Source: a virus
Reading direction: 5' to 3' (one strand)
IMG/VR virus record: IMGVR_UViG_3300025634_000001
Span: 41,738 to 105,737 of that record
DNA length: 64,000 nt
Every line of letters begins with the position of its first letter. Within the stretch, counting starts at the first letter, position 1. Positions 23,064 through 62,002 of this stretch are shown in pieces. A program made the translations under genes and the position numbers. The notes beneath the pieces are model-generated. The model had not been told where the DNA came from. It ran no database searches and was given only the letters and a program-made list of their open reading frames with translations.

Positions 23064-26000
23064 GTGGGCGACATCAACGAGACGATTTCCGTCAACGCGG
23101 GGCCCGGTATCGCAGGGCTCAAGGAGTTCACGGACGCGCTCGATCAGGCGTCGGCGAAGTGGGCGGCGTTCGAGGACAAGCTCAACGGCGGCGGCGGTGG
23201 CGCCGGCCCGGCGAAGCTCGCCGCGAGCATGGACGCCGCTGCGGCTTCGATCTCCGAGGCTGCGGCGAAGATCAACGCGGCGGTGGATAAGGTCGGCGCG
23301 TCCGCTGATACGGCGGCCGGGGGGATCGAGCGGCTCGGCTCGGCTGCGGGGACCGCTGGCGGCGGCCTGGATGAGGCCGCTGCGGGGGCTGATGCTGCCG
23401 CTGCGGCGTCGGATCGCCTCGCGGAGGCCGCGGATGCGGCGGGGGCGTCCCTGGACGTTCAGGCGGCTTCAGCGGCCCGGGCGGGGAAGTCCGGTGCTGA
23501 GGCGGCTGCGTCGTCGGAGGGGTTCGGGAAGGTCGCGAAGGTCGCCCTCCTCGGCCTCGGTGTCGCGGCTGCGTACGGCCTTGACAAGGCGATGAAGTTC
23601 CAGTCGCAGATGCTGCTGCTGAACACCCAGGCGGGCGTGTCCCTGCCGAAGGTGAAGCAGATGTCCCAGGGCGTCCTGGAGATCTCCACCCAGACCGGCC
23701 AGTCCCTCTCCGACGTGTCCGAGTCCGCCTACCATGTCGCGTCGAACATGGCGTCGATGGGGTCGACGGTCCCGAACATGCTGAAGGCGACGAAGATCGC
23801 CGCTGAGGGCGCCTCTGTCGGCCACGCCCACATGGTCGATGTCACCAACGCGCTGACCGCCTCCATCGCATCCGGGATCCCGGGGGTCAAGAACTACTCC
23901 CAGGCGATGGGCATGCTCAACGCCACGGTGGGTTCCGGCGACATGAACATGCAGGACCTGTCGGAGGCGTTCGGGACCGGCATGGTCGCGTCGGTGAAGG
24001 GCTACGGCCTGTCGCTGAAGGACGTCGGCGCCGGGCTCGCGGTGTTCGGTGACAACAACATCCGGGGTGCCAAGGCGGGCACGGACATGCGGATGGCGGT
24101 CCAGTCCCTCGCCGTCCCCGCGGCCAGCGCGAAGAAGGAGCTCGCGGGGCTCGGGCTGACCCAGAACTCGCTGGCGAAAGACATGCAGTCCGGGGGGCTG
24201 CTGAAGGCCCTGGATGACCTGAACGGGAAGTTCAAAGAGCACGGGATCACCGCGAAGAACGAGGGCCAGGTCATCACTGACCTGTTCGGCAAGAAGGCCG
24301 GGGTGGGCCTGTCGCTGCTGATGGAGCAGATGGACCGGCTCAAGTCGAAGTACCCGGCGATCACCGCGGGCGCGAACAGTTTCAATGCGGCGTGGGAGAA
24401 GACGCAGCAGTCCCCGGCGCAGAAGTGGAAGGAAGCCGTCGCCGGCTTGCAGGCGTCCGCGACGGGGTTCGGTACTCAGCTGCTCCCCGCGTTCAGTTCC
24501 GCGCTGGGGTTCGCGGACAAGATCCTCGCCGACATCAACGGGACCAAAGGCGCCGCCCAGGGGCTCGCCGTCGCGTTCGGCGGAGCCGCTGCGCTGTTCA
24601 CCGGCAAGAAGCTGGTCTCCGGGGTCGAGTCGGCGTTCAAGACCGGCGAGACGGTCTTGCGCGGGGTCGGGAAGATCTCCGAGGTGCTGAAGATCCCCGG
24701 CCTGGACAAGCTCAGCAATATCGGCAAGAGCGCCGGCCTGGATACGGCGGCGGAGTCCTTGACTGGGGCCGCGGGGGATCTCAGCGCCGCGGCGGCGAAG
24801 CTGTCAGAGGGCGGCCTCGGGGGCGCTGCAGGTGCGGCAGGAAAAGCCGAAGGCGGCGCTGCGGCGACGGCGGAAGGCGCGGGCGCCGGCGGCCTGCTCG
24901 CGAAGATAGGCAGCAGGACCGGCATGGATGCCGGAGGCCTGGCCTCCGCCGCCAATCCGATCGCGGCGGGCGTCGCGGCGGGCCTGCTGCTGCGCGGCTA
25001 CAGCGATTCGCTGGCACCGAAGGGCACCGGGGCCGGGGATATCAGCAAGGCCATCCAGAAGGGTAACCCGATCAGCCCGGACTGGGCTCTCGGCGGGATC
25101 ATCGGCAAGCTCGGGACATCGAACTTCGGCCTTGACGCCGGCAAATTCCTCAGCCGGGGCCTGTCGCAGGCCAGCCAGATGGTCACGGACCCGTTCGACG
25201 CTGCCCGGCACGGCATCGCCGGCCTGTTCGGCGGCGGCGGCCCGGCGCAGATGCAGCGCACCGGGGGCGGGCGCGGGGACGCGGTGAACTTCGCCGCCGT
25301 CAAGCCCCCGGACACCGGGGCGTTCACCTCGGCTGGACACGCCATCGAGAGCGCCTTCGACGGCGCGAAGGCGCGCGCCGGGTCGGCACTGTCGGGGATC
25401 GCGTCGGAGGTCGGCAGCGCGGGGTCGAAAGCCGCGTCAGAGGCGTCTTCCGCGTTCCACGGCGTCGAGTCGGCGGTGGCGTCGGGGATGTCGTCGGCTG
25501 CGGCGGCGGCCGGGTCCGGCGCGGGCAGGATCGAGTCGGCGCTAGCACGGCTGCCGGGCGAGCTCACGTCGGTCGGCAGTGCGGCGATGGCCGGGCTGGC
25601 TCACGGGATCGAGTCGGGGATCGGCGCTGTCATCGGCGCGGCCGAGCATGCCGCGGGCGCTGTCGAGGGCGCGATGAAAAACGTGCTGAAGATCTTCTCC
25701 CCGTCCAAGGTCACGGAGAAGATCGGCAAGTCCGCAGTCGACGGCCTCGTCGTGGGCCTGGAAGGCGGCCAGGCCGCCGTCACCGCGGCGGCGCAGGCGC
25801 TCGGCCAGCAGACCGCGAAGGCCGCCGACGTGACCGCCATCGACACCGCGATCACCAAGGGGATCGCCGACGCGGGCAAGGACTCGGCGCTGGTGAAGTA
25901 CCTCAAGGCGGACCAGTCGAAGCTGCTGGCCCTGGCGGCGCAGCGGACGAAGCTCGAGGCGGAGATCACCGACGCCCAGCAGATAGCCCAGGCCGCGATC

Positions 26001-26807
26001 AGCGGGGCGTCCATCATGAACGCGTCGGCCGCCACCCCCTACGATCCGTCGACGGTGCAGTCCCCGTACACGCTCGTGCAGGGGCAGCAGATGCAGGCGC
26101 AGCAGGCCGCCATGTTCGCCAAGGCCGTCGGGCAGGACAAGAAGCTCGGCCTCAACGCCACGTCGCTGAACCAGATCGTGCAGTCGGGGGCCTCGGCGGG
26201 CCTGCCGGTGGCGCAGGGGATCGCGCAGGGCGGCAAGTCCACCGTCGCGCAGCTCAACGCGCTGCAGGCCCAGATCCACGCGTCCGCCGCGAAACTCGGC
26301 GACGAGGGCGCGGGGCCGATGTACCAGGCCGGCGTCCAGGCTGGCCAGGGGCTCGCGGAAGGCATCAAGGCGTCACTCGGCTCGGTCGACGCGGCGATCT
26401 CGCAGATGGCCAAGTCGATGGTGGCGACGATCGAGAAGGATCTCAAGATCCACAGCCCGAGCCTGGTGTTCGCGGAGCGGGGCGCGATGGTGCCCGCGGG
26501 CGTGGCGATGGGCGTCGACGCGGGGGCCGGGCAGGCTGCCGCTGCGGTGGGCCGGATGGGCAGCCGGATGACGGGCGCCTACCACCCCGCCATGGCCTAC
26601 GCGGGCGGGTTCGGCGGGGGCCACGGCGGCGGGAGCGGTTCCGGTTCAGGCTCGGGCGGCGGCGACACGCATGTCACCGTGAACATGACGGTCATGGGCA
26701 GTGTCTCGACGCAGAACGACCTGATCAACGCAGTACAGCGCGGACTTTTGAAAAAAGGTTCGAACAACTGGCAAGTTGGCGTTATCAGGCCAGGTCGGGG
26801 CGGGTGA
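23064..26807 (+). CDS. tape measure protein (TP901-type core)
   Basis: 1247 aa, Ala/Gly-rich; G.KAGT.MR, DLFGK motifs; IFSPSK and IHSPS motifs. Confidence 0.95.
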   Translation: MGDINETISVNAGPGIAGLKEFTDALDQASAKWAAFEDKLNGGGGGAGPAKLAASMDAAAASISEAAAKINAAVDKVGASADTAAGGIERLGSAAGTAGGGLDEAAAGADAAAAASDRLAEAADAAGASLDVQAASAARAGKSGAEAAASSEGFGKVAKVALLGLGVAAAYGLDKAMKFQSQMLLLNTQAGVSLPKVKQMSQGVLEISTQTGQSLSDVSESAYHVASNMASMGSTVPNMLKATKIAAEGASVGHAHMVDVTNALTASIASGIPGVKNYSQAMGMLNATVGSGDMNMQDLSEAFGTGMVASVKGYGLSLKDVGAGLAVFGDNNIRGAKAGTDMRMAVQSLAVPAASAKKELAGLGLTQNSLAKDMQSGGLLKALDDLNGKFKEHGITAKNEGQVITDLFGKKAGVGLSLLMEQMDRLKSKYPAITAGANSFNAAWEKTQQSPAQKWKEAVAGLQASATGFGTQLLPAFSSALGFADKILADINGTKGAAQGLAVAFGGAAALFTGKKLVSGVESAFKTGETVLRGVGKISEVLKIPGLDKLSNIGKSAGLDTAAESLTGAAGDLSAAAAKLSEGGLGGAAGAAGKAEGGAAATAEGAGAGGLLAKIGSRTGMDAGGLASAANPIAAGVAAGLLLRGYSDSLAPKGTGAGDISKAIQKGNPISPDWALGGIIGKLGTSNFGLDAGKFLSRGLSQASQMVTDPFDAARHGIAGLFGGGGPAQMQRTGGGRGDAVNFAAVKPPDTGAFTSAGHAIESAFDGAKARAGSALSGIASEVGSAGSKAASEASSAFHGVESAVASGMSSAAAAAGSGAGRIESALARLPGELTSVGSAAMAGLAHGIESGIGAVIGAAEHAAGAVEGAMKNVLKIFSPSKVTEKIGKSAVDGLVVGLEGGQAAVTAAAQALGQQTAKAADVTAIDTAITKGIADAGKDSALVKYLKADQSKLLALAAQRTKLEAEITDAQQIAQAAISGASIMNASAATPYDPSTVQSPYTLVQGQQMQAQQAAMFAKAVGQDKKLGLNATSLNQIVQSGASAGLPVAQGIAQGGKSTVAQLNALQAQIHASAAKLGDEGAGPMYQAGVQAGQGLAEGIKASLGSVDAAISQMAKSMVATIEKDLKIHSPSLVFAERGAMVPAGVAMGVDAGAGQAAAAVGRMGSRMTGAYHPAMAYAGGFGGGHGGGSGSGSGSGGGDTHVTVNMTVMGSVSTQNDLINAVQRGLLKKGSNNWQVGVIRPGRGG

Positions 26808-36836: not shown

Positions 36837-36946
36837 ACGGGTTCTGCTTCAGGTGCGGCGCCTTCGGGCTGCTCGGCCGGGCTACGGCATGGTGCGGCAA
36901 ATGCACGGACCGGTGGCACCGGGACCGCCAGCGAGGACCGCGATGA
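36833..36946 (+). CDS. tiny CxxC..CxxC protein (37 aa)
   Basis: GTGA and ATGA overlaps on both sides. Confidence 0.45.
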   Translation: MNGFCFRCGAFGLLGRATAWCGKCTDRWHRDRQRGPR

Positions 36947-37701
36947 CGCCGCTGAAGCTGTCCGTCGACTCCGAGGGACGCGTTCACGGCCCGCGCATCA
37001 CCTGGAACGACCCGTGGCCCTGCCGCAACGGGGACGCCGGGGGGATGAAGGTCCCGTCCGGGGTGCTCGGGATGCTTGTCCACACCCAGGTTGGCAACAA
37101 TCCGGGATCTGTCAGCTGGTTCAATAACAGCGCATCTCAGGCATCGGCACATTTCTGCGTGGCCCAAGATGGCTCGATCGTGCAGATGGGACCGGTCAAC
37201 GGGTGGAAGGCGTGGCATGCCGCCGAGGGCAATCCCCACTGGTTCGGCTGTGAGTTCGCCGACGACGGCAACCCCGCGAACCCGCTCACCGCATCGCAGG
37301 TCATCGCCGGGGCGCAGCTCCTCGAGCTGCTGTCGCGGCCCGATGTCGGCCGGTTCCCCCTCCAGATGAGCAACTCGCCGAGCACCGAGGGGCTCGGCTG
37401 GCACGGGATGGGCGGCGTCGCGTTCGGCGGCCACTTCGACTGCCCCGGCGACACCCGCAAAGCCCAGCGACCGCGGATCATCGCGCTGGCCGCGGCCATC
37501 CGGGCGGGCGGATCGCAGGCGGGACCGTTCCGGCACACCGCGCCGGGCGGGAAGACGCTCGGCGAGATAGCAGCCGCGCGCAGTACGACGCCGGAGCACG
37601 TCTTCGGCGTGTCCGCGAAGGCCTACACCGCCGCGGACGTGGCCGTGATCGCCACGCTGCCGCTGCCGCCCGGTTTCCCGTATTACACATCCAGCCCCTG
37701 A
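36943..37701 (+). CDS. endolysin, N-acetylmuramoyl-L-alanine amidase (Amidase_2) with LysM-like tail
   Basis: LVHT, ASAHFCVAQDG.IVQ, AWHA..GN..GCE, H.DCPG; KTLGEIAA. Confidence 0.9.
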   Translation: MTPLKLSVDSEGRVHGPRITWNDPWPCRNGDAGGMKVPSGVLGMLVHTQVGNNPGSVSWFNNSASQASAHFCVAQDGSIVQMGPVNGWKAWHAAEGNPHWFGCEFADDGNPANPLTASQVIAGAQLLELLSRPDVGRFPLQMSNSPSTEGLGWHGMGGVAFGGHFDCPGDTRKAQRPRIIALAAAIRAGGSQAGPFRHTAPGGKTLGEIAAARSTTPEHVFGVSAKAYTAADVAVIATLPLPPGFPYYTSSP

Positions 37702-38947: not shown

Positions 38948-39200
38948 GGCGATGCAAGGATTTTTTCGTGACTCCTCCTGCGGATTGAGTCCGCAGGATT
39001 CTCAGGCAGCTATCGCCTGACGGGCAAGCCCTGCCCGCAAGATGTTGATGGCCGCGTTCACGTCCGCGTGGGCCTCGTGGCCGCACGACAGGCACCGGAA
39101 AACGGCCTGGCTTGCACGGTTCCCCTTGGCGACGTGCCCGCACTGAGCGCATCGCTGCGAGGTGTTCTGGGGGTTTACTGCGACTACCGTCCGTCCGGCC
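38948..39200 (-). ncRNA. TnpB omega (re)RNA: right-end hairpin plus 3' guide (5' boundary approximate)
   Basis: Minus strand after the stop: TCCTGCGGA-CTCAA-TCCGCAGGA-GGAGTCAC|GAAAAAATCCTTGCATCGCC, a typical IS605-type right end. Confidence 0.75.
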
Positions 39201-40189
39201 CATTCTGCCTTGGCGGCGAGTATCCGCAGGAAGTTACCCCATCCCGCATCCTTGATGGATCTGTTCAGCCCAGCTTTGGCCGCCGCGCCGTTTGGCTCGA
39301 ACGTGCCGTCACCAACCGGCCGCGGTTTCGGTCGGCGGGTCATGTTCGCGATCTTCAATGCTTCATGCACGATCACGTCATGGTCACGGACGAGAGCCAG
39401 CGCGGTCTTATGGGCATGGTCGAGGCGCTGGCGGCGTGCCTTGCCGTACAGTGCCGCAACCCGCCGGGTGGCCTTGCGCCTGCGATTGCTTCCTAGTTTC
39501 TTGCGGGAGTGCTTCCGGTTGGCGGCGGCAAGACGTTCAGTGATGGCGGCATGCGGGCGCGGGTTCGGGACGTGCTTCCCGTCGCTGGTCGTCAGGAACG
39601 ACATCACGCCTAGGTCGATGCCGACGACCGCGCCAGTCGGCGCCAGTGCCTCAACCGGCACGTCATCGCAAGTCAGGATCACGTACCAGCGACCAAGCTC
39701 ACGTCTTACCGTGATCCTCTTGACGATGCCCCTGACCGGGCGGTGCTGGTGTACGCGGACGTGGCCGATGCCCTGAAGCTTCACGCGGGTCACGGTCGGA
39801 TGCGGGACAGAATCCCAGAGGCATGCATGGCCATTCTCCGGCCACTCGATGGAGTTCCACCGACCCCGCCCCTTGAAGCGAGGATGGCCGGGTACCTCGC
39901 CTGCCTTGACGCGACGGAAGAAGCCTAGGAACGCATCGTCAAGGCGACGGAGAGTTTCCTGCTCGCAACTGTAGGCCCACCGGGTGAACCGCTCCGGGGC
40001 GGCGGCACGGATCTCCTTCAGCTGTGCCGCCTGTGTGCTGTAGAAGATGCGGCGTTTCCCCATCCGCCATGCCTCAACGCGTTCCTCAAGCGCGGCGTTA
40101 TATAGCTCGCGGGTGTCCTCAAGGCACGCCTCGAACGCGGCTATCTGCTTAGCAGTCGGCCGCAGAAGGAACCTATAGTTGCGATACAA
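39002..40189 (-). CDS. tnpB: RNA-guided endonuclease TnpB (IS200/IS605 family), RuvC triad intact
   Basis: YRFLLRPT..LYNAAL, PRFK, GIDLG (D), VHEAL (E), TSQRC..CG..FRC..CG, ADVNAAINI (D); likely TTG start at 40189. Confidence 0.95.
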   Translation of the reverse strand: MYRNYRFLLRPTAKQIAAFEACLEDTRELYNAALEERVEAWRMGKRRIFYSTQAAQLKEIRAAAPERFTRWAYSCEQETLRRLDDAFLGFFRRVKAGEVPGHPRFKGRGRWNSIEWPENGHACLWDSVPHPTVTRVKLQGIGHVRVHQHRPVRGIVKRITVRRELGRWYVILTCDDVPVEALAPTGAVVGIDLGVMSFLTTSDGKHVPNPRPHAAITERLAAANRKHSRKKLGSNRRRKATRRVAALYGKARRQRLDHAHKTALALVRDHDVIVHEALKIANMTRRPKPRPVGDGTFEPNGAAAKAGLNRSIKDAGWGNFLRILAAKAEWAGRTVVAVNPQNTSQRCAQCGHVAKGNRASQAVFRCLSCGHEAHADVNAAINILRAGLARQAIAA

Positions 40190-40280
40190 CCTGCACCGGG
40201 TCTCAGTAGTCGGTGTGGGTTCAGGCCCGGTTCGGTGGTTGCACATCGGCCGGGCCGCTTTATGTCGAACAGTCTAGCGG
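40190..40280 (-). promoter_or_regulatory. TnpB leader (TAGACT -10, hairpin, start-occluding hairpin)
   Basis: CCGCTAGACTG..AAAGC-GGCCCGG/CCGGGCC-AACCCACACCG/CGGTGCAGGTT(G). Confidence 0.65.
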
Positions 40281-40328
40281 ACTTAGACCACGACATGCAT
40301 GAGTGCCACGCTGAAAGGTGGCGAAAAA

Positions 40329-40652
40329 TTGAACGGCTTTTTCCACCCGGAAGTCCTCCGGGTGCTCGACAGGATCGACGCGCAGCTCTGCGCAATCAAC
40401 GAGAAACTGGAGAACATCATCATGTCTCAATCGGATATCGATGCTGCCGTGGCGACCGACACGGCGCTGCTGGCCGACCTGACCACCCAGACCGCCGCGA
40501 TCGCCGCCGCGCAGGCCGCGTTCGCCGCGGAGATCGCCACCCTGCAGGGCCAGGGCGTGGACACGTCCGCGCTGGACGCCATCAACGCTCAGCTGGCCGC
40601 CGCTCAGGCGCCTCTGGACGCTGCGGTGACCGCGCTGACCGCTGCGAGCTAG
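40329..40652 (+). CDS. Ala-rich coiled-coil protein, end of late operon
   Basis: AAGGTGG RBS before TTG; heptad pattern. Confidence 0.65.
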   Translation: MNGFFHPEVLRVLDRIDAQLCAINEKLENIIMSQSDIDAAVATDTALLADLTTQTAAIAAAQAAFAAEIATLQGQGVDTSALDAINAQLAAAQAPLDAAVTALTAAS

Positions 40653-40734: not shown

Positions 40735-41403
40735 CTAGCCGGCGATATTGCCATCCCCGGCCGAGTCGCCGTAGTTGTTGTTATAGCCATCCGTCCACTG
40801 CTGGTACTGCTCGCTGGCGACAGGGACGACGAAGCGGCCGAACACCCGGTAGGAGATCGTCGTCACCGTCACGCCGTAGTGCCACGACCAGTCCCCGATG
40901 CCGATACCGCCGAAGGTGGTCCCGTGCGGGAACGCCAGCTCATACCACGTCGAGGTACTGTCGGCCGGGTCGGCACCGTGATCGTTCTCGCTGTAGGCGA
41001 CACCCGCATTGAACGCCGCGCTCGGCAGCTCGGACGCAGTGAACGAGAAATCGGCGTAACCCGCCATCTGCCCGGTGACCCTGGACTTGATCACGTCGCC
41101 GGCGTAGGAGCCGCCCTGGTTCGGGGTCGGCGCTCCCTTGACCGTCGTGAAGGTGCCGATGTCGCCGAGCGTCGCGGTGAAGGTGTAGGCGCCGGGCGAG
41201 CCGCCAGTCAGGGTGACCGTCAGGCTCCGGGTCATGGTGTCGTCAGCCCAGGTGTCCGGGTTACCGTTCCCGCCGTCAGGGCGGTCGGTGACAAAGGTCA
41301 GCGCGTGCCACGACGGCTGACGGGCAGCGGCGTTCGCGATGCCGCCTGACGTCAGCAGCGCTGCGGCTGCGGCAACCGCGATGGCTGCGGCTTTGATGCT
41401 CAT
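40735..41403 (-). CDS. secreted protein
   Basis: Signal peptide ending ANA; GAGGAG RBS. Confidence 0.75.
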   Translation of the reverse strand: MSIKAAAIAVAAAAALLTSGGIANAAARQPSWHALTFVTDRPDGGNGNPDTWADDTMTRSLTVTLTGGSPGAYTFTATLGDIGTFTTVKGAPTPNQGGSYAGDVIKSRVTGQMAGYADFSFTASELPSAAFNAGVAYSENDHGADPADSTSTWYELAFPHGTTFGGIGIGDWSWHYGVTVTTISYRVFGRFVVPVASEQYQQWTDGYNNNYGDSAGDGNIAG

Positions 41404-41557
41404 TACGTTGTCTCCTCGTTGAGTGTTCAATCGGTTGCTGTGGGGTATTTAGGCAGTGATCGCACCGTTACCGCTCGCGCTCCCGGTTACAGCCGGCGAG
41501 CACCCCCGCCAAGCCCGGCCGCGCCGATCCCCCCCAGGCGCGGCCGGGCCCCAGGGG

Positions 41558-41998
41558 TCAGGCGACCTTGCTGAGCACCTCGCCGTGCAGCGCGAGCCCC
41601 GCTTTTGCGAGTGCCAGGCGGACCTCATCGACCTGCGGCCGGCTGAAACCCAGATCATCCAGGTCGAGAGCGGACAGGCCCTTCAGCTTGCCGACCGTAT
41701 TGAAGCCCGCGGTCTCCAGGCGCCGCTGGATGGTCACCGCCGGGCCGGTCCGGAAGGCAGGCCACAGGGACGTCAGGGACGCGTCGAGGGGATCGGGGGC
41801 GCCGGGGGCGGGTGTGCCGGCGAGGAGCGCGCGGACCTCGGCCTCCTTGTAACGTCGATGTCCCCCAAGTGTCCTTATTGTTGACAGTTTGCCCGCTTTA
41901 GCCCATCTTGTCACGGTCTTCGGATCAACTCTGAACATCTGGGCTACTTCGGACGGCGTGAGTAGATTGTCTGTTTCGATTGGCGTCCTGGCACTCAT
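41558..41998 (-). CDS. bldC: BldC-family regulator fused to an RNAP alpha-CTD-like domain
   Basis: LLTPSEVAQMFRVDPKTVTRWAKAGKLSTIRTLGGHRRY.EAEVRALL is essentially Streptomyces BldC; C-terminus LETAGFNTVGKL..LS..DL..LGF....VDEVRLAL..AGLAL. Confidence 0.9.
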   Translation of the reverse strand: MSARTPIETDNLLTPSEVAQMFRVDPKTVTRWAKAGKLSTIRTLGGHRRYKEAEVRALLAGTPAPGAPDPLDASLTSLWPAFRTGPAVTIQRRLETAGFNTVGKLKGLSALDLDDLGFSRPQVDEVRLALAKAGLALHGEVLSKVA

Positions 41999-42099
41999 CT
42001 TGCTACCCTCCCATTAGGTCCGCTGGCCTCCTGACCAGCGGTGATGTACCCTTATTGCGGTAAAGGGCGGCTATTGCGGATAACCGCCTGACTGCTTCA

Positions 42100-42136
42100 C
42101 CCCGTCCGGCCTCCCCAGGTCGGGCGGGGCTTTTTC
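42100..42136 (+). terminator. hairpin plus T-run
   Basis: CCCCGTCCGGCCT-CCCC-AGGTCGGGCGGGG-CTTTTT. Confidence 0.6.
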
Positions 42137-42197
42137 ATGCCCGGAGCCGGGCGGCCCCAGGAGTAAACGGTTCCCTGGGACCACCCGGCATCCGGTA

Positions 42198-42301
42198 TCG
42201 CGGTGACGCAGGCGATCTAAAATCCCTCAACGACAAAGAGGGCCGGGAACCGATCAGCCCGTTCCCATCGCCGGCGTTCTGATGTGGCTGCCCCACCGCG
42301 A
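42198..42301. ncRNA. candidate multibranch structured RNA
   Basis: Four nested helices in an intergenic region (see findings). Confidence 0.45.
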
Positions 42302-42312
42302 CTAGCTACTTC

Positions 42313-43068
42313 TTAGCGCAGCACGCCGAAGTCGGCGCCCCAGAGCTGGTTGTCGTTCACCGTGCCCAGCTCAGGCACGAGGAAGGCACCCGTGAACCCG
42401 GTCAGGCTGTCGGTCTCCAGCTGCGGCCGGGGAGTGTTCGTCGGATACCCGTTCTTCGGGTAGTCCAGCACGAACGGGTGCGAGAACGTGGTGTCCGACC
42501 CGTTGATCAGCGGCACGTAGCCGTGGGTGATCGTAGTGTCGAGCGTGTCCACGACCCAGGCGGTCTTGCTCGTGTAACCACAGGGCTGAAGGGTCACCTT
42601 CGTGCCCTGCTGGGCGGTCGCCGCGACACCCGCGCACAGGCCGGACGCCACCCCGTACGGGGTGTACTCCAGCTCGAACGCCGGGTCATCCGGGTAGCCG
42701 TTCCCTGCGGCCGTGACGCCGGCCATCCCGATCCCGGAACCGTAATGCAGGTCGATCGCCGCGGACATGAGACCCGCGGCGAAGAAGTCCGACGTGGTGC
42801 CGTTGAACTCGGCGCTGAAGTCCTCAGCCGGGTCGGTGTCCGACGTGCGGAACAGGATGACCGGCTGGCCGACCTTCGCAGCCTGCTGGAACACGTCGAG
42901 AACGAACGCCGGCGTGTGGTGGGTGCCGAACTCGCGGCTGAACACGTCAGCGCACGTAGACCCGCACGACGGGGTGGCAGCACTGGCGGACATCACGCCC
43001 ACCGCGCCGACACCGCCGACGAGGGTCAGCGTGGCCGCTGCGGCGAAAACCTTGCTCTTGACAGACAA
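42313..43068 (-). CDS. secreted protein, ricin-B/lectin-like pattern
   Basis: Signal peptide ending ASA; VLDV, LCAGV..VTLQPC..W, NQLW. Confidence 0.7.
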   Translation of the reverse strand: MSVKSKVFAAAATLTLVGGVGAVGVMSASAATPSCGSTCADVFSREFGTHHTPAFVLDVFQQAAKVGQPVILFRTSDTDPAEDFSAEFNGTTSDFFAAGLMSAAIDLHYGSGIGMAGVTAAGNGYPDDPAFELEYTPYGVASGLCAGVAATAQQGTKVTLQPCGYTSKTAWVVDTLDTTITHGYVPLINGSDTTFSHPFVLDYPKNGYPTNTPRPQLETDSLTGFTGAFLVPELGTVNDNQLWGADFGVLR

Positions 43069-43167
43069 TTCGATTCCTCTGTTTGGACTCCAGCCTCGCC
43101 CTGCGCGCGGCTGGCCCTGCGATTCCCCGGTCATTACCCGGACCGGGACGGGGGTCTATGGGGGCGG

Positions 43168-44193
43168 CTAGCCCATCTCGAACGCCAGCACCGTCTGCTC
43201 GGGCTGCTCAGACTCCAGGATGGCCAGGTTCTTCACGGCCTGCCGGTAATAGCTGGCCTTCAGTTCCGCGCCGGCGGCCTTGCGGCCCAGCTCGACCGCC
43301 GCGTAGGCCTCAGATCCGACGCCGAGAAACGGAGTGAACACCGTCTCGCCAGGATTGGTCCGCATGTCCACGAACCGGCGCGACACGTCGAGCTGCAGCG
43401 GGTGGACGTGCTTCTCGTCCTCCTCGTCGCGGGCCTCCCGGTACGGCAGGACCGCCATGTGACTGCGGTCATCGTACTGACCCAGGTTGCCGCGGACGTC
43501 ATCCCACACCGACCCGGCATACTGCCGCCACACCCACTGCGAATACCGGTTCTCCAGCTGGCTCCCCGACCACCCCCGGTACTTCATCACGTCGGCGGGC
43601 GGGACGCTGGCGCCATGGTAGGCAGTGAACCCGTTCGGGTGCGTCACCGGGACGGGATTCTTCCCCTTCTTGCGGAAGATCAGGAGCCAGTCCGCGCCGG
43701 CGATACCCGCGAACGTGGCGTCATCCACGATCGTCTTGTGAGTGAGATCCTTGACCATCGTCCGGTTCCGGACCGCCAGCGGCTCCTTCCAGATGGCGTG
43801 ACGGCCCAGGTACTCGAACCCGTGCCGCTGATGCAGGCGGATCACGTCACCGGGGAAGTCGACCAGGGCGTCACCGCCGGAGTTCCCCGACGGGGTGTCC
43901 ATGCAGTGGACGGCGTTCAGCCGGCCCGGCATCGTCAGCCGGTGAAGCTCGGCGACGAAATAGCCGTACATCTCGAAGAACTCCGTGTACCCGCCGGCAT
44001 TGGACAGGTCCCGCTCACTGGAGGAGTACTTGTACAGGCCCGCCCCCCCGGCGCCCTCGTCGCCGTAGGCGAACGGCGGGGAGTAAACCACGCCGTGCAT
44101 GCACCCGTCCGGGTAGGCGGCCATGACCTCCATGCTGTCGCCGTTGTGGATGGCGTACCGGTCGGTGATGACCTGTGCTGCTACCTGACCCAT
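43168..44193 (-). CDS. N6A/N4C DNA methyltransferase (beta class)
   Basis: GDSMEV, YSPPF, HVHPLQLD, VFTPFLGVGSE, GAELK.SYY. Confidence 0.9.
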   Translation of the reverse strand: MGQVAAQVITDRYAIHNGDSMEVMAAYPDGCMHGVVYSPPFAYGDEGAGGAGLYKYSSSERDLSNAGGYTEFFEMYGYFVAELHRLTMPGRLNAVHCMDTPSGNSGGDALVDFPGDVIRLHQRHGFEYLGRHAIWKEPLAVRNRTMVKDLTHKTIVDDATFAGIAGADWLLIFRKKGKNPVPVTHPNGFTAYHGASVPPADVMKYRGWSGSQLENRYSQWVWRQYAGSVWDDVRGNLGQYDDRSHMAVLPYREARDEEDEKHVHPLQLDVSRRFVDMRTNPGETVFTPFLGVGSEAYAAVELGRKAAGAELKASYYRQAVKNLAILESEQPEQTVLAFEMG

Positions 44194-45557
44194 GAGGGGA
44201 CCTCCGTGTCCTTGGCGTAGGTGGCGCTGCGGTCGACAGCCAGCGCGTTGTTCATGTGGGCGGTCAGGGAACTGAACATCCGGTCCGCCTTGACGGCCTT
44301 GCGTTCCAGGCTGGCGAGGACCCGTTCCCCGCCCGTGGTCGTGACGACATCCACGATCACCGGATGCTGCTGCCCGAACCGCCAGCAGCGGCGCACCGCC
44401 TGGTAGTAGGCCTCGAACGAATGGTCCACGAAGTACGTCATGCGGTGGCAGTTCTGGTAGTTCAGGCCCCACGACGCGATCCGGGGTTTCGTGACCAGGA
44501 CCCGGATCTCCCCGCGGCCGAACGCGCCGAGCTTCTCCTCTTTCGCTTCCACCGGATCGGACCCGGTCACCTGGACCGCGCCGGGGATCAGCTTCGTGAG
44601 CAGGTCGCCCTCGTCGTTCAGGTGGCACCAGGCGATGCCGGGCGCGGCGTCCGAAAGCAGGTCCGCGGCCTTCTCGCACCGCTCCGTGATGGTGCGCCGT
44701 GACTCTTCCCGCTCCTCGTGCAGCCCGACGGCAGGCACGTCGAACAGGGTGCCCTCTTTCACCGTCCGCGCCTCCACGACATTGCAGCGGGTCTCCAGCG
44801 GCGGCAGGATGAACCCGTCATCTGCGAACCCGAGATCGGACGGCTTGCGCATCGCCCTGGCCCACGACGACACCCACCGCCAGAACAGTTCCTCGGCGTG
44901 GCCCTTGAACCGCCATTCCTCCCCGGCCCGCGGGCGCCACTTCCCGCCCATCGTCTTGCTGGTCTTCTCCTTGTTCGTGAAGAACCGGCCGAGCATGTCC
45001 ATGTGACCCAGGTACCCGAGGGCCTCACTGGAGGTCCCCAGCTCCGTGTGATCGTTCGGGGAGGGCGTGGCCGTGGCCAGCAGCCGGTACGGCACGGTCC
45101 GCATGAACTCGTTCACCATCGCCCGCCGCACCGAATCGTACGACTTCAGTGCCGAGCTCTCGTCGCAGATCACGCCGCCGAACTTGTCCCGGTCGAAATG
45201 CTCGAGCCGCTCGTAGTTGGTGACGGTGATGGGGGCCGGGATCTTGCCGTCCCGCGAGATGGCCGCGTCTATCCCGAACTTGGCGGCCTCGGTCACCATC
45301 TGGTCGGTGACGCCCAGCCGGGTCAGCAGCAGGACGGGCTTGCCGGCGTGCTTGTGCACGTTCTGCCCCCAGACCAGCGACATCGGGGTCTTCCCGCCCC
45401 CGCAGTCCACGAACAGCGCGCCGCGGCCCTGCCGGATCGACCACTCCGTGAGCATCCGCTGGAACCCGAACAGGAAGTCCGGCGTCCACAGCGGCTCGAA
45501 CCCGGCCGAGCTACCCAGCTGCGCCTTGCGTGCGAGCAGTTCCGCGTAGGTGCCCAT
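44181..45557 (-). CDS. SF2 (SNF2-like) helicase
   Basis: DCGGGKT, DESS, TATPSPND, QAVRRCWRFGQ. Confidence 0.9.
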   Translation of the reverse strand: MGTYAELLARKAQLGSSAGFEPLWTPDFLFGFQRMLTEWSIRQGRGALFVDCGGGKTPMSLVWGQNVHKHAGKPVLLLTRLGVTDQMVTEAAKFGIDAAISRDGKIPAPITVTNYERLEHFDRDKFGGVICDESSALKSYDSVRRAMVNEFMRTVPYRLLATATPSPNDHTELGTSSEALGYLGHMDMLGRFFTNKEKTSKTMGGKWRPRAGEEWRFKGHAEELFWRWVSSWARAMRKPSDLGFADDGFILPPLETRCNVVEARTVKEGTLFDVPAVGLHEEREESRRTITERCEKAADLLSDAAPGIAWCHLNDEGDLLTKLIPGAVQVTGSDPVEAKEEKLGAFGRGEIRVLVTKPRIASWGLNYQNCHRMTYFVDHSFEAYYQAVRRCWRFGQQHPVIVDVVTTTGGERVLASLERKAVKADRMFSSLTAHMNNALAVDRSATYAKDTEVPSWVR

Positions 45558-45973
45558 CAGCAGGCCCCCAGGTCTCTCGCAGCGGCTTCCGTGCGGTGAT
45601 CCCACGCTTCCTGGTCGTGCACTGGTGCGGCGGCAGGCAAGCCGGGACCGTGGACCGCGCAGTCAGTGACCGGGCTCGTGTCGGTGCCGGGGATCTCGCG
45701 GCCCAGGTAGCAGGTGCAGTGCGGCTGCCCTTCCAGGATCGCCAGAGCCACCGCAGCGACCTGGACAAGCTCCGTCCTCAGTGCTTCCGGGTCACCGTCG
45801 AGGGCGGCGCGGGCGACTTCCCCGCACTCCTCGGTGAGTACCGCGACCTTGACCATGAGGGGGACGGCGGCACTTGAGCAGTCACCCTGCCCGTGGGCGT
45901 GCGGTGCGGCCCAGAGCTGCGCCTGGCGGTCCCGCTCGGCGCTGATCGCGGCCAGGGCGTCGGCGCGGGTCAC
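45557..45973 (-). CDS. MazG-like NTP pyrophosphohydrolase
   Basis: LTEECGEVARA..ELVQVAAVA. Confidence 0.8.
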   Translation of the reverse strand: MTRADALAAISAERDRQAQLWAAPHAHGQGDCSSAAVPLMVKVAVLTEECGEVARAALDGDPEALRTELVQVAAVALAILEGQPHCTCYLGREIPGTDTSPVTDCAVHGPGLPAAAPVHDQEAWDHRTEAAARDLGAC

Positions 45974-46158
45974 TGCGCTGCCTCGTGTGCGGGCAGTTCG
46001 GCCGCGGCGGCAACTTCGGGTGGCGCGGTGATCATCGCGACCACGCGGCCCCGGCTGGTGACGTAGGTGATCCGACCCCGGATGGCGTCGTTGATCACAT
46101 CGGCTAGGTGCTCGCGAACGTCGCGGATGCTCCGCTCGCACGGTTCGGTGGTAGTCAT
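45970..46158 (-). CDS. Phd/YefM-like DNA-binding (antitoxin-type) protein
   Basis: SIRDVREHLADVIN..ITYVTSRGRVVA. Confidence 0.75.
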   Translation of the reverse strand: MTTTEPCERSIRDVREHLADVINDAIRGRITYVTSRGRVVAMITAPPEVAAAAELPAHEAAQ

Positions 46159-46215
46159 GACGCTAGCGTACACAAGTAGTGGCGGGTGCACACTGGTGAC
46201 ACGCCGGAAAGTTTC

Positions 46216-46458
46216 TCACGCCGCCGCGCCCGGATTCACGCGGGAGCCGGGCATCGGCCTCGGGTCGGCGCCGGCCGCCTGCTGGGCTTCCTGCTGGCGC
46301 TTCTCCCAGGCGATGACGTCGGCTAGCTTGTAGAGGGTCCTGCGCCCGAACCGTGTCCCGGACGGGCCGTAGCCGCGGTGCTTCCAGTAGCGGACCGTGG
46401 ACGGGACAGTCCGCAGGCGGTCGGCTAGCTCGGCGGTGGTCAGCCACTGGTCGTCCAC
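46216..46458 (-). CDS. xis: excisionase / HTH_17
   Basis: WLTTAELADRLR...TVRYW...YGP..FGRRTLY...DV.AW; divergent from repressor-integrase. Confidence 0.8.
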   Translation of the reverse strand: MDDQWLTTAELADRLRTVPSTVRYWKHRGYGPSGTRFGRRTLYKLADVIAWEKRQQEAQQAAGADPRPMPGSRVNPGAAA

Positions 46459-46569
46459 GGAAATCCTCACAGGGAATACGTACCGGAACCCGTCACGGGG
46501 ATGATGACGACAGGTTCGCATATCCGTTGGCTATATGCAACCTGTACCGGGATGCGGTTTAATATCCCC

Positions 46570-47100
46570 GTGACGAATCAACGCCAGCCAACGGTAACCC
46601 CTGAATCCGGGGACTCCCCCGGCATGCGGGACGAGTACGCCGGCGAACCGGAACGCGTCCTCGCCGCCCGGGTCCGCGAGATCCGGGAGAAGCTCGGCAT
46701 GACCCAGGCCGAAGTCGCCAGGGGAATGACCGCGCAGGGGCTCGCCATGCTGCAGAGCACCATCGCCAAGATAGAGGCCTGCCAGCGGCCCGTACGCCTC
46801 AACGAGGCCGTCCGCCTCGCCGCCGTGCTCCGCACCCAGCTGGACGACCTCATGACCGACCCCCGCCAGCGGGACATGCAGGACGCCCTCGCCGCAGCGA
46901 GGGACGAGGAACGGGAGCTGCTCGGGCAGCTTCTCCAGGCAACCCACCGGCTCGAGCAGCGCCGCGCCGCGCTCGACGCCGCCGGGCATGCCGTGCGCGA
47001 GTCGGCCGCCCAGGTCGAGGAACTGCAAGACCTGTACGCGCAAGCCCAGTACACGACCGGGATGCTGATCGCAGCCGGCGACGAGAGGAACGAACCGTGA
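46570..47100 (+). CDS. XRE-family repressor with coiled-coil tail
   Basis: RVREIRE..GMTQAEVA..QSTIAKIE..R; TAATAT just upstream of GTG suggests a leaderless start. Confidence 0.8.
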   Translation: MTNQRQPTVTPESGDSPGMRDEYAGEPERVLAARVREIREKLGMTQAEVARGMTAQGLAMLQSTIAKIEACQRPVRLNEAVRLAAVLRTQLDDLMTDPRQRDMQDALAAARDEERELLGQLLQATHRLEQRRAALDAAGHAVRESAAQVEELQDLYAQAQYTTGMLIAAGDERNEP

Positions 47101-48323
47101 GCCATGTCGAGGACCGGTGGTTCACCACCGTCAAGGACGAGAACGGCAAGGCCGGCAAGGAACGCAGCGCACGGCACGGCAACGGCCGGCGCTGGCGGGC
47201 CCGGTACGAGGACCCGGACGGGCGGGAGCGGAACCGCAGCTTCGCCACGAAGGTGATGGCCGAGAACTTCCTCACCGAGGTCGAGCACTCCAAGCTCGCC
47301 GGTTCCTACCGTGATCCCGACGCCGGGAGGGTGAGCCTGCGGAAGTACGCGGAGGGGTGGGTGGATGCCTATCATGCCGACTCCGCCCGCGGCGAGCAGA
47401 TCCGCCGGCAGCTCCGGCTCCACATCCTGCCGGGCCTCGGCGCTCACCCCCTGGCTCAGCTCAGCCAGCGGCCGAGCATCATCGGGAAATTCTTGCAGGG
47501 GCTGCCCATGACGCCGGCAGGGCAGAGCCAGGTCCGCATCACCCTGTCCAGCCTTCTCGGCACGGCACTGGAGGACGGCCTGATCGCCCGGAATCCGTGC
47601 GAGGCCAAGGTGGCGAAGATCCAGCTCCCGCCGAGGCGCAAGCTCATCCCGTGGACATCCGCCCAGATCTCCGAGCTCCGCGCCGGGCTGCCCGAGCAGT
47701 GGCGGGCCGTGGCCGACTGCGGGTCAGGGCTCGGGCTGCGGCAGGGGGAGATATTCGGCCTGGCTGAAGATGCTGCCGGGCTGCTGAAGCGGCGAGCGCG
47801 GATCGTGCGGCAGGTAACGCGGATCAACGGGCGCCTGTGGTTCTCGCTGCCGAAGGGAGATAAGGAGCGGGACGTGCCGCTGCCCGAGTGGGTCAGGTTC
47901 GCGCTGGCCGCCCACATGGAGCGCTTCCCTCCCGTGGAGGTGACGCTGCCGTGGAATGACCCCAAGAACCTGAAGCGGCACGGGAAGCCGGTTACCGTCG
48001 CGCTGCTGTTCACTAAGAACGGCGGCCCGATGATGCACTCGACGTTCAACACGATGGCGTGGCGGCCGGCCCGGAACGCGGCGGGCATGACCGAGGGCGG
48101 GCTGCATCAGCTGCGCCACTTCTACGCCTCGACTCTTCTCGCCGGAGGGGTTGACATCAAGGCAGTGTCGGAGTATCTGGGCCACCATGACGCGTCGGTG
48201 ACGCTGAGGGTTTACGCGCACCTGATGCCGGTGGCCGAGGGGCGTGCCCTGAGGGCGATCGAGGCCGCTTTTGAGGCCGATGACGGCCCCGTGACGGCCC
48301 CTGAGGCAGAAAGTGGCCCCTGA
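47097..48323 (+). CDS. int: tyrosine integrase
   Basis: GLRQGE, K, HQLRHFYAS, LGH, TLRVYAH. Confidence 0.95.
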   Translation: MSHVEDRWFTTVKDENGKAGKERSARHGNGRRWRARYEDPDGRERNRSFATKVMAENFLTEVEHSKLAGSYRDPDAGRVSLRKYAEGWVDAYHADSARGEQIRRQLRLHILPGLGAHPLAQLSQRPSIIGKFLQGLPMTPAGQSQVRITLSSLLGTALEDGLIARNPCEAKVAKIQLPPRRKLIPWTSAQISELRAGLPEQWRAVADCGSGLGLRQGEIFGLAEDAAGLLKRRARIVRQVTRINGRLWFSLPKGDKERDVPLPEWVRFALAAHMERFPPVEVTLPWNDPKNLKRHGKPVTVALLFTKNGGPMMHSTFNTMAWRPARNAAGMTEGGLHQLRHFYASTLLAGGVDIKAVSEYLGHHDASVTLRVYAHLMPVAEGRALRAIEAAFEADDGPVTAPEAESGP

Positions 48324-60421: not shown

Positions 60422-62002
60422 CTATTTCGATTTCTTGCCGGCCAGGTTGAGCCCGTCGGCGACTTTCCAGGGCCAGTCGAATTCATGCGTGCCCCACATC
60501 AGCTCCTGCGGCCAGTGACGCTCTTCGCGCGGGCCGCGCCACGGAAGCACGGACACGAGGCGATGCCGGCCGTTCTCGTCGGTGTCGCCTTGAGGCTTGA
60601 TGCCGTAGCCAAACTCGGGCCAGCGCATGAGCAGGCTCGAGCCGGTCGGGCGGATGCTGCGGTTAACGCCGTCGCCATGGCCGGCGTGGGCTTCGGTGAC
60701 GAGAGCGCAGTCCGCCTTGACGCGGGCGGCGTCCAGGGCGGAGACGACGAGGCGGGCCGCCGATTCCTCGTTCGTGTCCGTGGCATGCAGGCGGTAGAAC
60801 GGGCCGCAGACCAGCAGGCTCGGCTGATGTGCGGTGACGCGCTCGAGTAGCCACGCGGCGTCTTCCTCGCGGGTCAGGTCGATTCCCGCGGGCTTCTGCA
60901 GGATGCGCAGCGCGCCCTCGGGGACCGGGTGGCCCTGGCCGCGGGCGATGGCCTCGAGCTTGCGGAAGTGGCGCCGCGATTTGCGGTCAGGGTTCTCGCA
61001 GTCGATGAAAAGGACGCGCTGCGGAGTGATCGGCTCATCGGTGAACGGATGCACGCCAGCCGCCGCGGCGACTGCGAGCTGCCGGATGACGACGCTCTTG
61101 CCCAGCCCCTCGAATCCGGTCCAGATGAGGCGGTCGCCGCGCTCAAGCAACTCGGGTATCACCCAGTCGCTCGGCGGGTCGATGATCGAGATGAACTCGT
61201 ACAGGTCCGGGGCGAGGTCGGGCTTCCCCGTGTCGTCGCCGCGGAAGGTGACCTCGAGCTCGGCGAGCGAATGACCGGCCCGCAGGTGGTCCGATACATC
61301 CTTGAGGTCGCCGGCGGCCTCGTGGATCTCGACTGCCCCGGCGATGTCGTTAAGGCTTGCGGCGACCTGCCGGGCGTGGGCCTGCCCGGGCTTGTCCTTG
61401 TCCGCGATGATGATCACGATGGCCTCGCGGAGGAATTCCGCGTACTCGGACCGCCACTTCCCGGCGCCGCCCGGATTGCATGTCGCAGTGACGCCCGCGG
61501 CCTCGAGCGCGTGGACATCCTTCTCGCCCTCGACCACGTAAATGATCTCGCCGTCCTTGACGGCCTCGATCACCTTCGGCAGGCGGTACAGGACGCGACG
61601 GGTCTCGCCGAGACTCCAGCGCCAGCCGCTCTTGCGCGTGGCGTCAGGGACTCGCTGCGGGAAGCTCTTCGTCGCGGTGCGGAGCACCTGGAACAGCAGC
61701 TTCTCGCTCTCGTCCACGTAGCTGTAGACCGCGACCGCATCGCCGTGCGGGGTCCACTCGGCTTGCGACTGCTGCTCGTCCCGCGGCGTGCAGAGGTCAT
61801 TCCAGGTGAGGCCGATCTTGGCGAGGATGTCTTCGGCCGCGCAATTGGCGTGGCAGCGGATGACGACCGGGTGTGACGTGCCGCGGCCGATCGTCATGCT
61901 GGCCTCGCGGTCCTCGTGGGCCGGGCAGCAGGCTTTCCAGTAGCCGCCGAGCTGGCGGACTCCCTCGAGCCTCGGCAGCAGAACCTCAGTGAGTGCGTCC
62001 AT
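60422..62002 (-). CDS. primase-helicase (Zn finger + TOPRIM + RecA-like ATPase)
   Basis: CPAHED..S..CHANC; VEGEKD, IADKD; GFEGLGKS. Confidence 0.9.
   Translation of the reverse strand: MDALTEVLLPRLEGVRQLGGYWKACCPAHEDREASMTIGRGTSHPVVIRCHANCAAEDILAKIGLTWNDLCTPRDEQQSQAEWTPHGDAVAVYSYVDESEKLLFQVLRTATKSFPQRVPDATRKSGWRWSLGETRRVLYRLPKVIEAVKDGEIIYVVEGEKDVHALEAAGVTATCNPGGAGKWRSEYAEFLREAIVIIIADKDKPGQAHARQVAASLNDIAGAVEIHEAAGDLKDVSDHLRAGHSLAELEVTFRGDDTGKPDLAPDLYEFISIIDPPSDWVIPELLERGDRLIWTGFEGLGKSVVIRQLAVAAAAGVHPFTDEPITPQRVLFIDCENPDRKSRRHFRKLEAIARGQGHPVPEGALRILQKPAGIDLTREEDAAWLLERVTAHQPSLLVCGPFYRLHATDTNEESAARLVVSALDAARVKADCALVTEAHAGHGDGVNRSIRPTGSSLLMRWPEFGYGIKPQGDTDENGRHRLVSVLPWRGPREERHWPQELMWGTHEFDWPWKVADGLNLAGKKSK

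Follow-up and report, generated by a model that had tools for sequence, protein, structure and literature searches.

What does a bacteriophage do with a near copy of an actinomycete developmental regulator that is joined to a domain resembling part of RNA polymerase? In Streptomyces, sporulation and antibiotic production are delayed by a regulator family of which BldC is regarded as the founding, single-domain member. To our knowledge it has been described as the sole MerR-like protein consisting of a wHTH (winged helix-turn-helix) alone, and phage interference with actinomycete development is largely unexplored. The gene considered here lies in a 64-kb window (the whole stretch of DNA that was analysed), which corresponds to bases 41738-105737 of a 105,737-bp IMG/VR virus record. 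All coordinates given below are those of the window.

The gene (41558..41998, minus strand, stop codon included) encodes a fusion protein, P0001, of 146 amino acids. Its frame is intact, with 146 codons and an ATG start, and a Shine-Dalgarno sequence, GGGAGGG (42006..42012, minus strand), can be read directly from the sequence 7-13 nt 5' of the ATG. Three parts, all on the minus strand, can be distinguished. Residues 1-61 (41816..41998) form a BldC-type wHTH, as judged from NF033787 and the structures 6ama and 6amk; the codons of this domain are unusually AT-rich (GC3 0.59). Residues 62-65 (41804..41815) are a Pro-rich flexible linker, placed from pLDDT values and from an alignment to S. coelicolor RpoA 236-250. 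Residues 66-146 (41561..41803) comprise an (HhH)2 domain derived from the alpha C-terminal domain of RNA polymerase (alpha-CTD), together with a conserved tail. An AlphaFold model calculated with a 55-sequence alignment as input has a mean pLDDT of 80 and places helices in the C-domain at residues 86-96, 102-106, 110-115 and 120-132. The mean pLDDT falls to 57 over residues 61-70, which are Pro-rich (TPAPGAPDP), and the low-confidence stretch extends past the linker into the PDPL..LWP motif. This is the layout proposed in an initial sequence-only reading of the locus (BldC, Pro-rich linker and alpha-CTD-like domain, in a phage). The profile, structure and homology results agree that it is correct.

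The element that carries the gene is a complete temperate tailed phage of the siphovirus type, 105.7 kb long and from peat. This follows from the direct terminal repeats at the record termini, the estimated completeness of 100% and the gene content as identified by PHROG and Pfam scans. The latter includes a tape-measure protein (23064-26807), an endolysin (36853-37701), an XRE-type repressor candidate (46501-47100, plus strand), a tyrosine integrase (47097-48323, plus strand) and the replication genes for a primase (60422-62002, minus strand) and a replication initiator (62006-62920, minus strand). The description of the protein as phage-encoded is therefore well founded. The same scans detected an IS200/IS605-type TnpB (39002-40246), an N6/N4 DNA methylase (43168-44223) and an SNF2-type helicase (44181-45605), all three on the minus strand. 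An HTH_17 protein (46216-46521, minus strand) is encoded beside the repressor candidate and the integrase.

The phage has a G+C content of 65-70%, and several metagenome runs of peat from 2016 contain its DNA; there are no RNA runs among the sequencing runs listed for the locus. No nucleotide relatives were found among GenBank phages. The best BldC matches (80-84% identity) are in Actinomadura, Streptosporangiaceae and Frankiales MAGs. From its composition and from these matches we infer that the host is an uncultured actinomycete.

The N-terminal domain had been read as near-canonical BldC, and the comparisons bear this out. Residues 12-59 score 103.4 bits against the NCBIfam model HTH_BldC (NF033787), whose curated cut-off is 77. 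Residues 1-64 align with the solved structures 6ama and 6amk, obtained from BldC crystals of the S. coelicolor and S. venezuelae proteins, at 99 bits with one single-residue gap. The model matches these structures with a TM score of 0.87-0.92 and an identity of 82-90%, and in a structural search the N-domain reached a Z of 9.3 to 6amk_A. In BldC, phosphate and base contacts are made by Ala15, Asp24, Lys26, Thr27, Thr29, Arg30, Trp31, Lys33, His46, Arg47 and Arg48, while the head-to-tail dimer has a hydrophobic core made up of Phe21, Trp31 and Leu43; the consensus AATTNNNN(C) occurs in 9-bp direct repeats (PMC5859096). The phage protein keeps all of these contact and interface residues, at +1 numbering, except for Ala15, which is replaced by Ser. 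Ala15 contacts DNA through its backbone amide. Since the DNA-contact and interface residues are kept, the phage protein is predicted to read the same type of site as BldC (AATTNNNN(C) in 9-bp repeats) and to be able to form BldC-type protomer contacts. Its sequence would also allow it to co-polymerise with host BldC.

The fusion protein also matches the TIGR01764 'excise' model (32.5 bits compared with a cut-off of 28.8). This model describes the shared wHTH, which is also present in BldC. A role for the fusion protein as the phage excisionase is unlikely because a different HTH_17 gene adjoins the repressor candidate and the integrase. The integrase is about 5 kb away from the fusion gene.

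The identity of the C-terminal domain was addressed by structural, profile and sequence comparisons. Residues 66-140 form a four-helix domain, for which matches were sought in an all-against-representatives structural search. The best match was to E. coli alpha residues 248-317 (4mex_A; Z 10.7, rmsd 2.6, 68 residues aligned). The B. subtilis alpha-CTD (1z3e_B) gave a Z of 10.4 (rmsd 1.9, 66 residues aligned, 27% identity) and was also found by Foldseek (TMt 0.80). The plastid and H. pylori alpha-CTDs gave Z scores of 8.3 and 8.1, RAD51-paralogue HhH domains 6.9-7.4 and SAM domains about 6. The domain might have been a generic SAM or HhH fold, but this reading is disfavoured because the alpha-CTDs score about 3 Z units higher and the profile homology to RpoA (see below) is significant.

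The sequence-only reading had called for an HMM or structure search for an alpha-CTD. The structure search and the profile-profile comparisons were positive, whereas the direct Pfam model RNA_pol_A_CTD (PF03118) gave no match to the fusion protein at E <= 10; sub-threshold matches to PF03118 occur in 11 of the 55 family members (best E 0.006). Another Pfam model, PF22993 (SAM_EPH), gives a sub-threshold match to the fusion protein (E 0.046) and weak matches to 33 of the 55 members. We regard these SAM_EPH matches as cross-talk, because bona fide alpha-CTD-repeat proteins match the same model. A phmmer search of residues 62-146 against 1.84 billion representatives retrieved multi-repeat proteins (for example, P0121, E 2.7e-26), which are called RNA_pol_A_CTD by Pfam at 2e-81.

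Among approximately 1,200 actinobacterial genomes, the C-domain matched only the C-termini of frames of 340-370 amino acids; these frames are RpoA, and the identity across residues 6-77 is 37-39%. The family HMM matched rpoA CTDs at 1e-7 to 1e-9. In an hhalign comparison of the family C-domain with the CTDs of nine actinobacterial and the E. coli RpoA, the probability was 96.8% (E 2.8e-10), with 42% identity over 48 columns; against a larger RpoA set, which was motif-selected, it was 97.9%. BLASTP aligned the C-domain with actinobacterial RpoA (35-38% identity over 73-74 residues) and gave no match with E. coli RpoA, and the only PDB sequence matches were Streptomyces and Mycobacterium RpoA. 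The alignment reaches into the RpoA inter-domain linker, with PDPLDASLTS..LWP in the phage protein facing PSPTDAALAADLALP in S. coelicolor RpoA (residues 236-250). In P0136, a relative without the BldC domain, the actinobacterial DLLDIRNFG motif stands beside the LWP and GLALKGEV motifs of the family. The proposal that the C-domain is alpha-CTD-like is thus upheld both by the structural scores and by hhalign. Three independent lines (phmmer, the genome searches and hhalign) show it to be homologous to the RNA polymerase alpha-CTD, with actinobacterial RpoA as its closest relative. Because of this proximity and because the end of the RpoA inter-domain linker is included, it most likely originated when the phage captured the 3' end of rpoA from an actinobacterial host.

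We aligned E. coli rpoA with the family and with actinobacterial CTDs, which requires one single-residue gap (E. coli P293) in the core. We take the 265 determinant, which contacts UP-element DNA, to be R265, N268, C269, G296, K298 and S299 in E. coli, and the 261 determinant, which contacts sigma region 4, to be D258, D259 and E261. The equivalents in the phage protein are T89, R92, R93, S119, P121 and Q122 for the former and F82, R83 and G85 for the latter, so that all nine positions are changed. The six residues of the 265 determinant are intact in nine actinobacterial RpoA proteins. Across 124 family members, the R265 equivalent is T, A or V, and N is the commonest residue at the 268 equivalent, yet at only 29%. 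R or K is found at the equivalents of positions 267, 269, 296, 304, 309 and 310 in 67-98% of the 124 members.

Other positions are conserved in a family-specific way. These are D69-P70-L71, P74, L78-W79 and G139-E140, and the last residue is Ala in 95% of cases. R127 (98%), L130, L137 and G139 are conserved at 98-100% in the 124 members. A stretch of helix 3 (S-x-A-D-L-x-D) is similar to the S-E-A-D-L-L-D seen in actinobacteria. Judged from these alignments, the C-domain is one in which the alpha-CTD fold and core are kept and the known partner surfaces are gone, while the face equivalent to the DNA-binding surface is still basic.

How widespread is the architecture? A word-indexed search recovered more than 100 full-length homologues of 137-157 amino acids (identity 51-65%, coverage 90% or higher), almost all of them from JGI, ENA and Logan metagenomes. 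Both domains are present in 124 retrieved protein sequences, and at least 120 proteins from independent metagenomes share the two. Many of the homologues are named 'excisionase family DNA binding protein'. In the ESM Atlas, the fusion protein falls in a 52-member cluster, of which 89% are viral among members with a record. The C-domain also occurs joined to an XRE HTH (P0133 and P0139) and on other N-termini (L181, P0136 and P0137). One further protein, P0127, combines a fragment of the neighbouring secreted protein with the C-domain; it is probably mis-called or rearranged and gives a weak hint of linkage.

A metagenome motif scan yielded mostly rpoA genes, together with one family member on a 4.4-kb contig, L195. 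This contig is syntenic with the window: it carries a methylase, a 266-amino-acid secreted protein (60% identical to the product of 42313-43134 in the window), the fusion gene and a convergent homologue of 40299-40652.

No two-domain fusion was found in three samples of 401 actinobacterial genomes (phylum and two orders), and among PLSDB plasmids and GenBank phages there were only N-domain matches or no match. None of approximately 80 host bldC loci has an alpha-CTD-like tail. The full-length-alignment scan of genome contigs was dominated by canonical 68-amino-acid bldC; two longer matches in it (L068 and L034) are not two-domain genes, and a 152-amino-acid frame matched in one genome (L171) is spurious. 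Phage contigs commonly carry near-exact copies of BldC, and 180 BldC-like relatives are found on those of IMG/VR. Most of these are stand-alone: about 74 of the 86 ORFs looked at are of stand-alone BldC size and a few have unrelated tails. A second fusion on IMG/VR contigs was not found using alignment patterns, exact C-domain peptides or a degenerate DNA motif. The search for this architecture in phage datasets, which had also been proposed, was negative for GenBank phages and other IMG/VR contigs; the >100 proteins that share it are metagenomic. Taken with L195 and the taxa in the Atlas cluster, the negative genome searches suggest that the family is borne mostly by phages.

A full-text literature search identified no paper on a BldC with a C-terminal domain or on a phage alpha-CTD-like regulator, in agreement with the initial impression that the fusion had not been described. 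BldC combined with an alpha-CTD-derived domain is thus an architecture that has not been described for the BldC family.

The region upstream of the gene provides a candidate target for the N-terminal domain. This 314-bp intergenic region (41999..42312, minus strand) is more conserved than the adjacent coding sequences: nucleotide identity between the window and L195 is 77-83% in the intergenic region and 66-69% in the coding sequences. The upstream neighbour (42313..43134, minus strand), which is syntenic in L195, encodes a 273-amino-acid protein whose N-terminus resembles a signal peptide and for which there is no family match. It is separated from the fusion gene by a strong terminator-like hairpin of 13 pairs (42100..42137, plus strand; stem 42100-42129) followed by CTTTTTC; L195 retains the stem of this hairpin, built from other letters. 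The intergenic spacer also contains a long inverted repeat (42137-42198). Closer to the gene is a leader hairpin, CCGCTGG-N8-CCAGCGG (42020..42041, minus strand), which is found in L195 with one compensatory pair change. The upstream hairpin, the Shine-Dalgarno sequence and the leader hairpin are all signs that the fusion gene is its own transcription unit. A sigma-70 consensus scan found no promoter, and an Rfam scan of 41900-42400 gave nothing above threshold.

Between the two hairpins lies a candidate BldC-type operator (42048..42088, minus strand) with four AT tracts 8-11 bp apart. The tracts are at 42052-42083, with spacings of 8, 11 and 8 bp, and are located 55-86 nt 5' of the ATG. In the direction of the gene the units read GTTATCCGC, AATAGCCGC, (C)CTTTACCGC and AATAAGGGT. 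At the same place L195 has three exact 9-bp units (GATATCCGC, AATTACCGC and CATAACCGT), the middle one of which, AATTACCGC, matches the published AATTNNNN(C) consensus exactly. The array in the window equals that of L195 with exactly one extra 10-bp unit. The short CCGCAATA repeat was read directly from the sequence and is absent from the repeat-search listing.

A scan of the 105.7 kb for clusters of four or more distinct AT tracts, each 4 nt or longer, within 36 bp gave this site and no other. The phage genome contains 29 AATT in total, no canonical AATT-N5-AATT and, beyond the promoter array, no AATT pair within 40 bp. The background for AT-tract arrays, from 160 other loci, is 0.002-0.005 per 240 bp. 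No such array was found upstream of these 160 other phage and host bldC genes and, for this reason, autoregulation is not a general trait of BldC. These observations suggest that the AT-tract array is a BldC-type operator in the promoter of the fusion gene itself, which host BldC could possibly bind as well.

The reading that we prefer, and to which we give about an even chance, is that the protein is a BldC-like, self-controlling phage regulator that probably also acts on host BldC sites and carries an alpha-CTD-derived accessory module. It would be expressed from the prophage as a separate transcription unit and would assemble head-to-tail, in the BldC fashion, on AT tracts approximately one helical turn apart. 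Given the direct-repeat array in its own promoter, it probably autoregulates through the three or four 9-10-bp units found there. Since its DNA-reading residues are the same as those of host BldC, it probably occupies host BldC operators too, either alone or mixed with host BldC. The alpha-CTD-derived domain would serve as an accessory contact module on a flexible linker. Because the canonical determinants are lost and the family is strongly basic on the equivalent face, its likeliest task is to stabilise or bridge the filament through additional DNA contact, either non-specific or in the minor groove. We infer this DNA binding from the conserved basic residues only, the R265 equivalent being T, A or V. 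Faithful mimicry of alpha-CTD appears less likely than such an extra DNA contact.

Mimicry was the core of the sequence-only reading, in which the protein could co-polymerise with host BldC and present an alpha-CTD decoy, rewiring host development. As weighed here, this would take place on host developmental promoters, and the decoy would titrate factors that normally contact alpha-CTD (activators, sigma region 4 and NusA-type partners). Several features are as this would lead one to expect, including the conserved BldC interface and DNA-contact residues, a C-domain that is truly alpha-CTD-derived and nearest to actinobacterial RpoA, the actinobacterial resemblance within helix 3, and a gene that forms a separate unit at a moron-like position in a temperate phage. 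However, partner surfaces should be kept in a decoy, and here all six 265 and all three 261 positions are replaced, although all nine actinobacterial RpoAs carry the 265 set unchanged. What the family does conserve (LWP, R127, the GE-[VI] tail and the terminal Ala) is specific to it and unlike alpha-CTD. The decoy proposal is weakened by these replacements and we consider it quite improbable. Unlikely, in our judgement, is also a broader scenario in which tailed phages of actinomycetes have welded the 3' end of rpoA to a copy of BldC, giving a protein that joins host BldC filaments on developmental promoters and, through its RNA-polymerase-derived module, alters the engagement of polymerase or activators there.

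Alternatively, the protein could serve the phage alone, as a regulator or architectural protein (Cro/Apl-like, gp36-like or an RDF) with a self-associating C-domain and no host targets. Its BldC-like wHTH is structurally near Xis and RDF proteins (Z 8.2 to Pukovnik Xis in the structural search), the 'excise' model scores above its cut-off, the sole repeat array found is in the phage itself, and there is a precedent in D29 gp36, which is BldC-like and regulates genes of the phage (PMC12266134). At 83-90% identity, however, the N-domain is far closer to host BldC than an Xis-type function needs, and the family holds this identity; moreover, the HTH_17 gene beside the repressor and integrase is a better Xis or Cro candidate. 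As to the C-domain, its occurrence on an XRE HTH in P0133 and P0139 fits a generic oligomerisation module, as might the SAM_EPH matches in 33 of the 55 members, but we regard the latter as cross-talk and SAM scores fall well under those of alpha-CTD. A complex prediction with two copies of residues 66-146 scored 0.00 and speaks neither for nor against self-association. We hold this purely internal role to be rather unlikely. That the fusion arose through misassembly or faulty gene calling, or that the gene is decaying and non-functional, could be imagined from the exclusively metagenomic sources and the aberrant codon usage of the N-domain. This is extremely improbable and effectively ruled out by the conservation of both domains in the family: the frame is intact, at least 120 independent homologues carry both domains and are conserved to the last residue, the locus is syntenic in L195 and the phage DNA recurs in several runs.

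What would follow depends on the C-domain. Should it only add DNA affinity, the fusion extends BldC biology modestly. Contact with polymerase or its activators would make it a new mode of viral transcription takeover; and if the protein does join host filaments, it would be a viral regulator made from two host transcription parts that reprogrammes differentiation during lysogeny. That a widespread, mostly viral sub-family of BldC (>100 members) should have gained a domain descended from RNA polymerase alpha will be surprising to specialists in Streptomyces development and in phage-host transcription. A 146-amino-acid protein and a 40-bp candidate operator provide a concrete and cheap experimental handle on two questions: phage hijack of the Bld cascade and the role of the alpha-CTD fold outside RNA polymerase.

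The protein can be compared with several known systems. With Streptomyces BldC (SCO4091; 6ama, 6amk; NF033787) it shares the wHTH, its fold, the DNA contacts and the Phe21/Trp31/Leu43 core, and its candidate operator of 9-10-bp direct repeats (AT tract and C) likewise resembles AATTNNNN(C). Streptomyces BldC, however, is a chromosomal, single-domain protein of 68 residues, whereas the phage protein has an extra folded domain of 80 residues. With the RNA polymerase alpha-CTD (PF03118; 4mex_A, 1z3e_B and, from S. coelicolor, 7vpd_A) the C-domain has in common the (HhH)2 fold, the hydrophobic core, the motifs G-x-x-T-V-G-x-L and D-E-V-x-x-x-L-x-x-x-G-L-x-L, and a similar preceding linker (PDPLDASL in the phage protein, PSPTDAAL in RpoA). 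It also resembles alpha-CTD in that a flexible linker ties it to an N-terminal domain that assembles. Unlike alpha-CTD, it is located outside RpoA with a BldC wHTH as its N-terminal partner, its 265 and 261 determinants are replaced, it carries the LWP and GE[VI]..[VA]A-COOH motifs, and it misses the Pfam threshold.

Small phage wHTH regulators bind direct repeats cooperatively and some of them regulate phage transcription (PMC12266134). D29 gp36, Pukovnik Xis and 186 Apl are also phage-encoded MerR/BldC-like wHTH proteins, but they are single-domain, far more diverged from BldC and without an alpha-CTD-like domain; D29 gp36, in addition, prefers GC-rich repeats. A similar general architecture, known from automatic annotation only, is that of uncharacterised viral 'HTH_17 + RNA_pol_A_CTD' proteins of tailed phages. 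These include a separate 51-member viral cluster in the ESM Atlas, in which PF03118 is present in all members and HTH_17 in 78%, and the BFVD entry A0A6J5MNY7, a protein of 128 amino acids labelled 'RNA polymerase alpha subunit C-terminal', from an uncultured Caudovirales phage.

The codon usage of the fusion gene (window 41558-41998 (-)) differs between its two parts. The codons that specify the BldC domain (codons 1-61, window 41816-41998 (-)) have a GC3 of 0.59, a value under the first percentile for windows of 61 codons across the phage's genes, while codons 62-146 have a GC3 of 0.86, as does the genome median. Rare codons (CTA, GTA, AGA, ACA, ATA, TCA and AAA) are numerous in the BldC part, although TTA does not occur among codons 1-61. 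The homologue carried by L195, a syntenic 4.4-kb metagenomic contig, does not show such recoding (GC3 0.80). The low GC3 could be due to recent acquisition or to selection for nucleotide divergence from the host bldC.

BldC carried by phages seems to be widespread. The IMG/VR viral contigs include 180 BldC relatives, with no more than 86% identity to the N-domain of the fusion protein, P0001, and stand-alone near-canonical homologues are common (loci L083-L162). A few (L097, L124 and L156) carry unrelated C-terminal domains and one, L143, has a second wHTH in tandem. No discussion of phage-borne BldC was found in the papers searched.

The C-domain of P0001, used alone as a query, retrieved P0121, a 900-aa protein from an ENA metagenome composed of 10-12 alpha-CTD-like repeats in tandem (Pfam RNA_pol_A_CTD, 2e-81, 10 stretches). 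Proteins P0123, P0125, P0129 and P0130 are repeat proteins resembling P0121.

The fusion family has a conserved C-terminus, G-E-[VI]-x-x-x-[VA]-A-COOH (P0001 residues 139-146, window 41561-41584), and the final residue is Ala in 95% of the 124 members. This non-polar Ala-Ala or Val-Ala end is reminiscent of ClpXP-type C-terminal degrons, and regulated proteolysis through the tail is a possible reading of the likeness.

The intergenic region upstream of the fusion gene (41999-42312) shows 77-83% nucleotide identity to L195, compared with 66-69% for the neighbouring genes. It includes a terminator-like hairpin on the + strand (42100-42137) and an inverted repeat with 25-nt arms (42137-42198); no Rfam family matched in the region. 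A + strand RNA terminating at the hairpin would be antisense to the leader and start codon of the fusion gene.

The genes flanking the fusion gene, 42313-43134 (-) (273 aa) and 40735-41430 (-), specify proteins with a signal-peptide-like N-terminus and no Pfam or PHROG family. The 273-aa product has a syntenic L195 counterpart (60% identity). The pair resembles a moron or lysogenic-conversion cluster. Between the lysis genes and 40299-40652, a TnpB-type IS200/IS605 transposase gene has been inserted (39002-40246 (-); phrog_506, E 1e-96), which is absent from the equivalent position in L195. A host genome with near-identical copies could point to the phage's host.

The phage has two HTH_17-type genes besides the fusion gene. 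The gene at 46216-46521 (-), divergent from the paired XRE repressor and integrase genes, has a 101-aa product that is likely a Cro or Xis. A BldC-like HTH_17-type ORF of 74 aa lies outside the window (G000:C1:20118-20237 (+); 47 bits, below the cut-off). A weak Phd/YefM antitoxin-like match (45970-46191 (-); E 2e-4, below the cut-off) falls among the early leftward genes.
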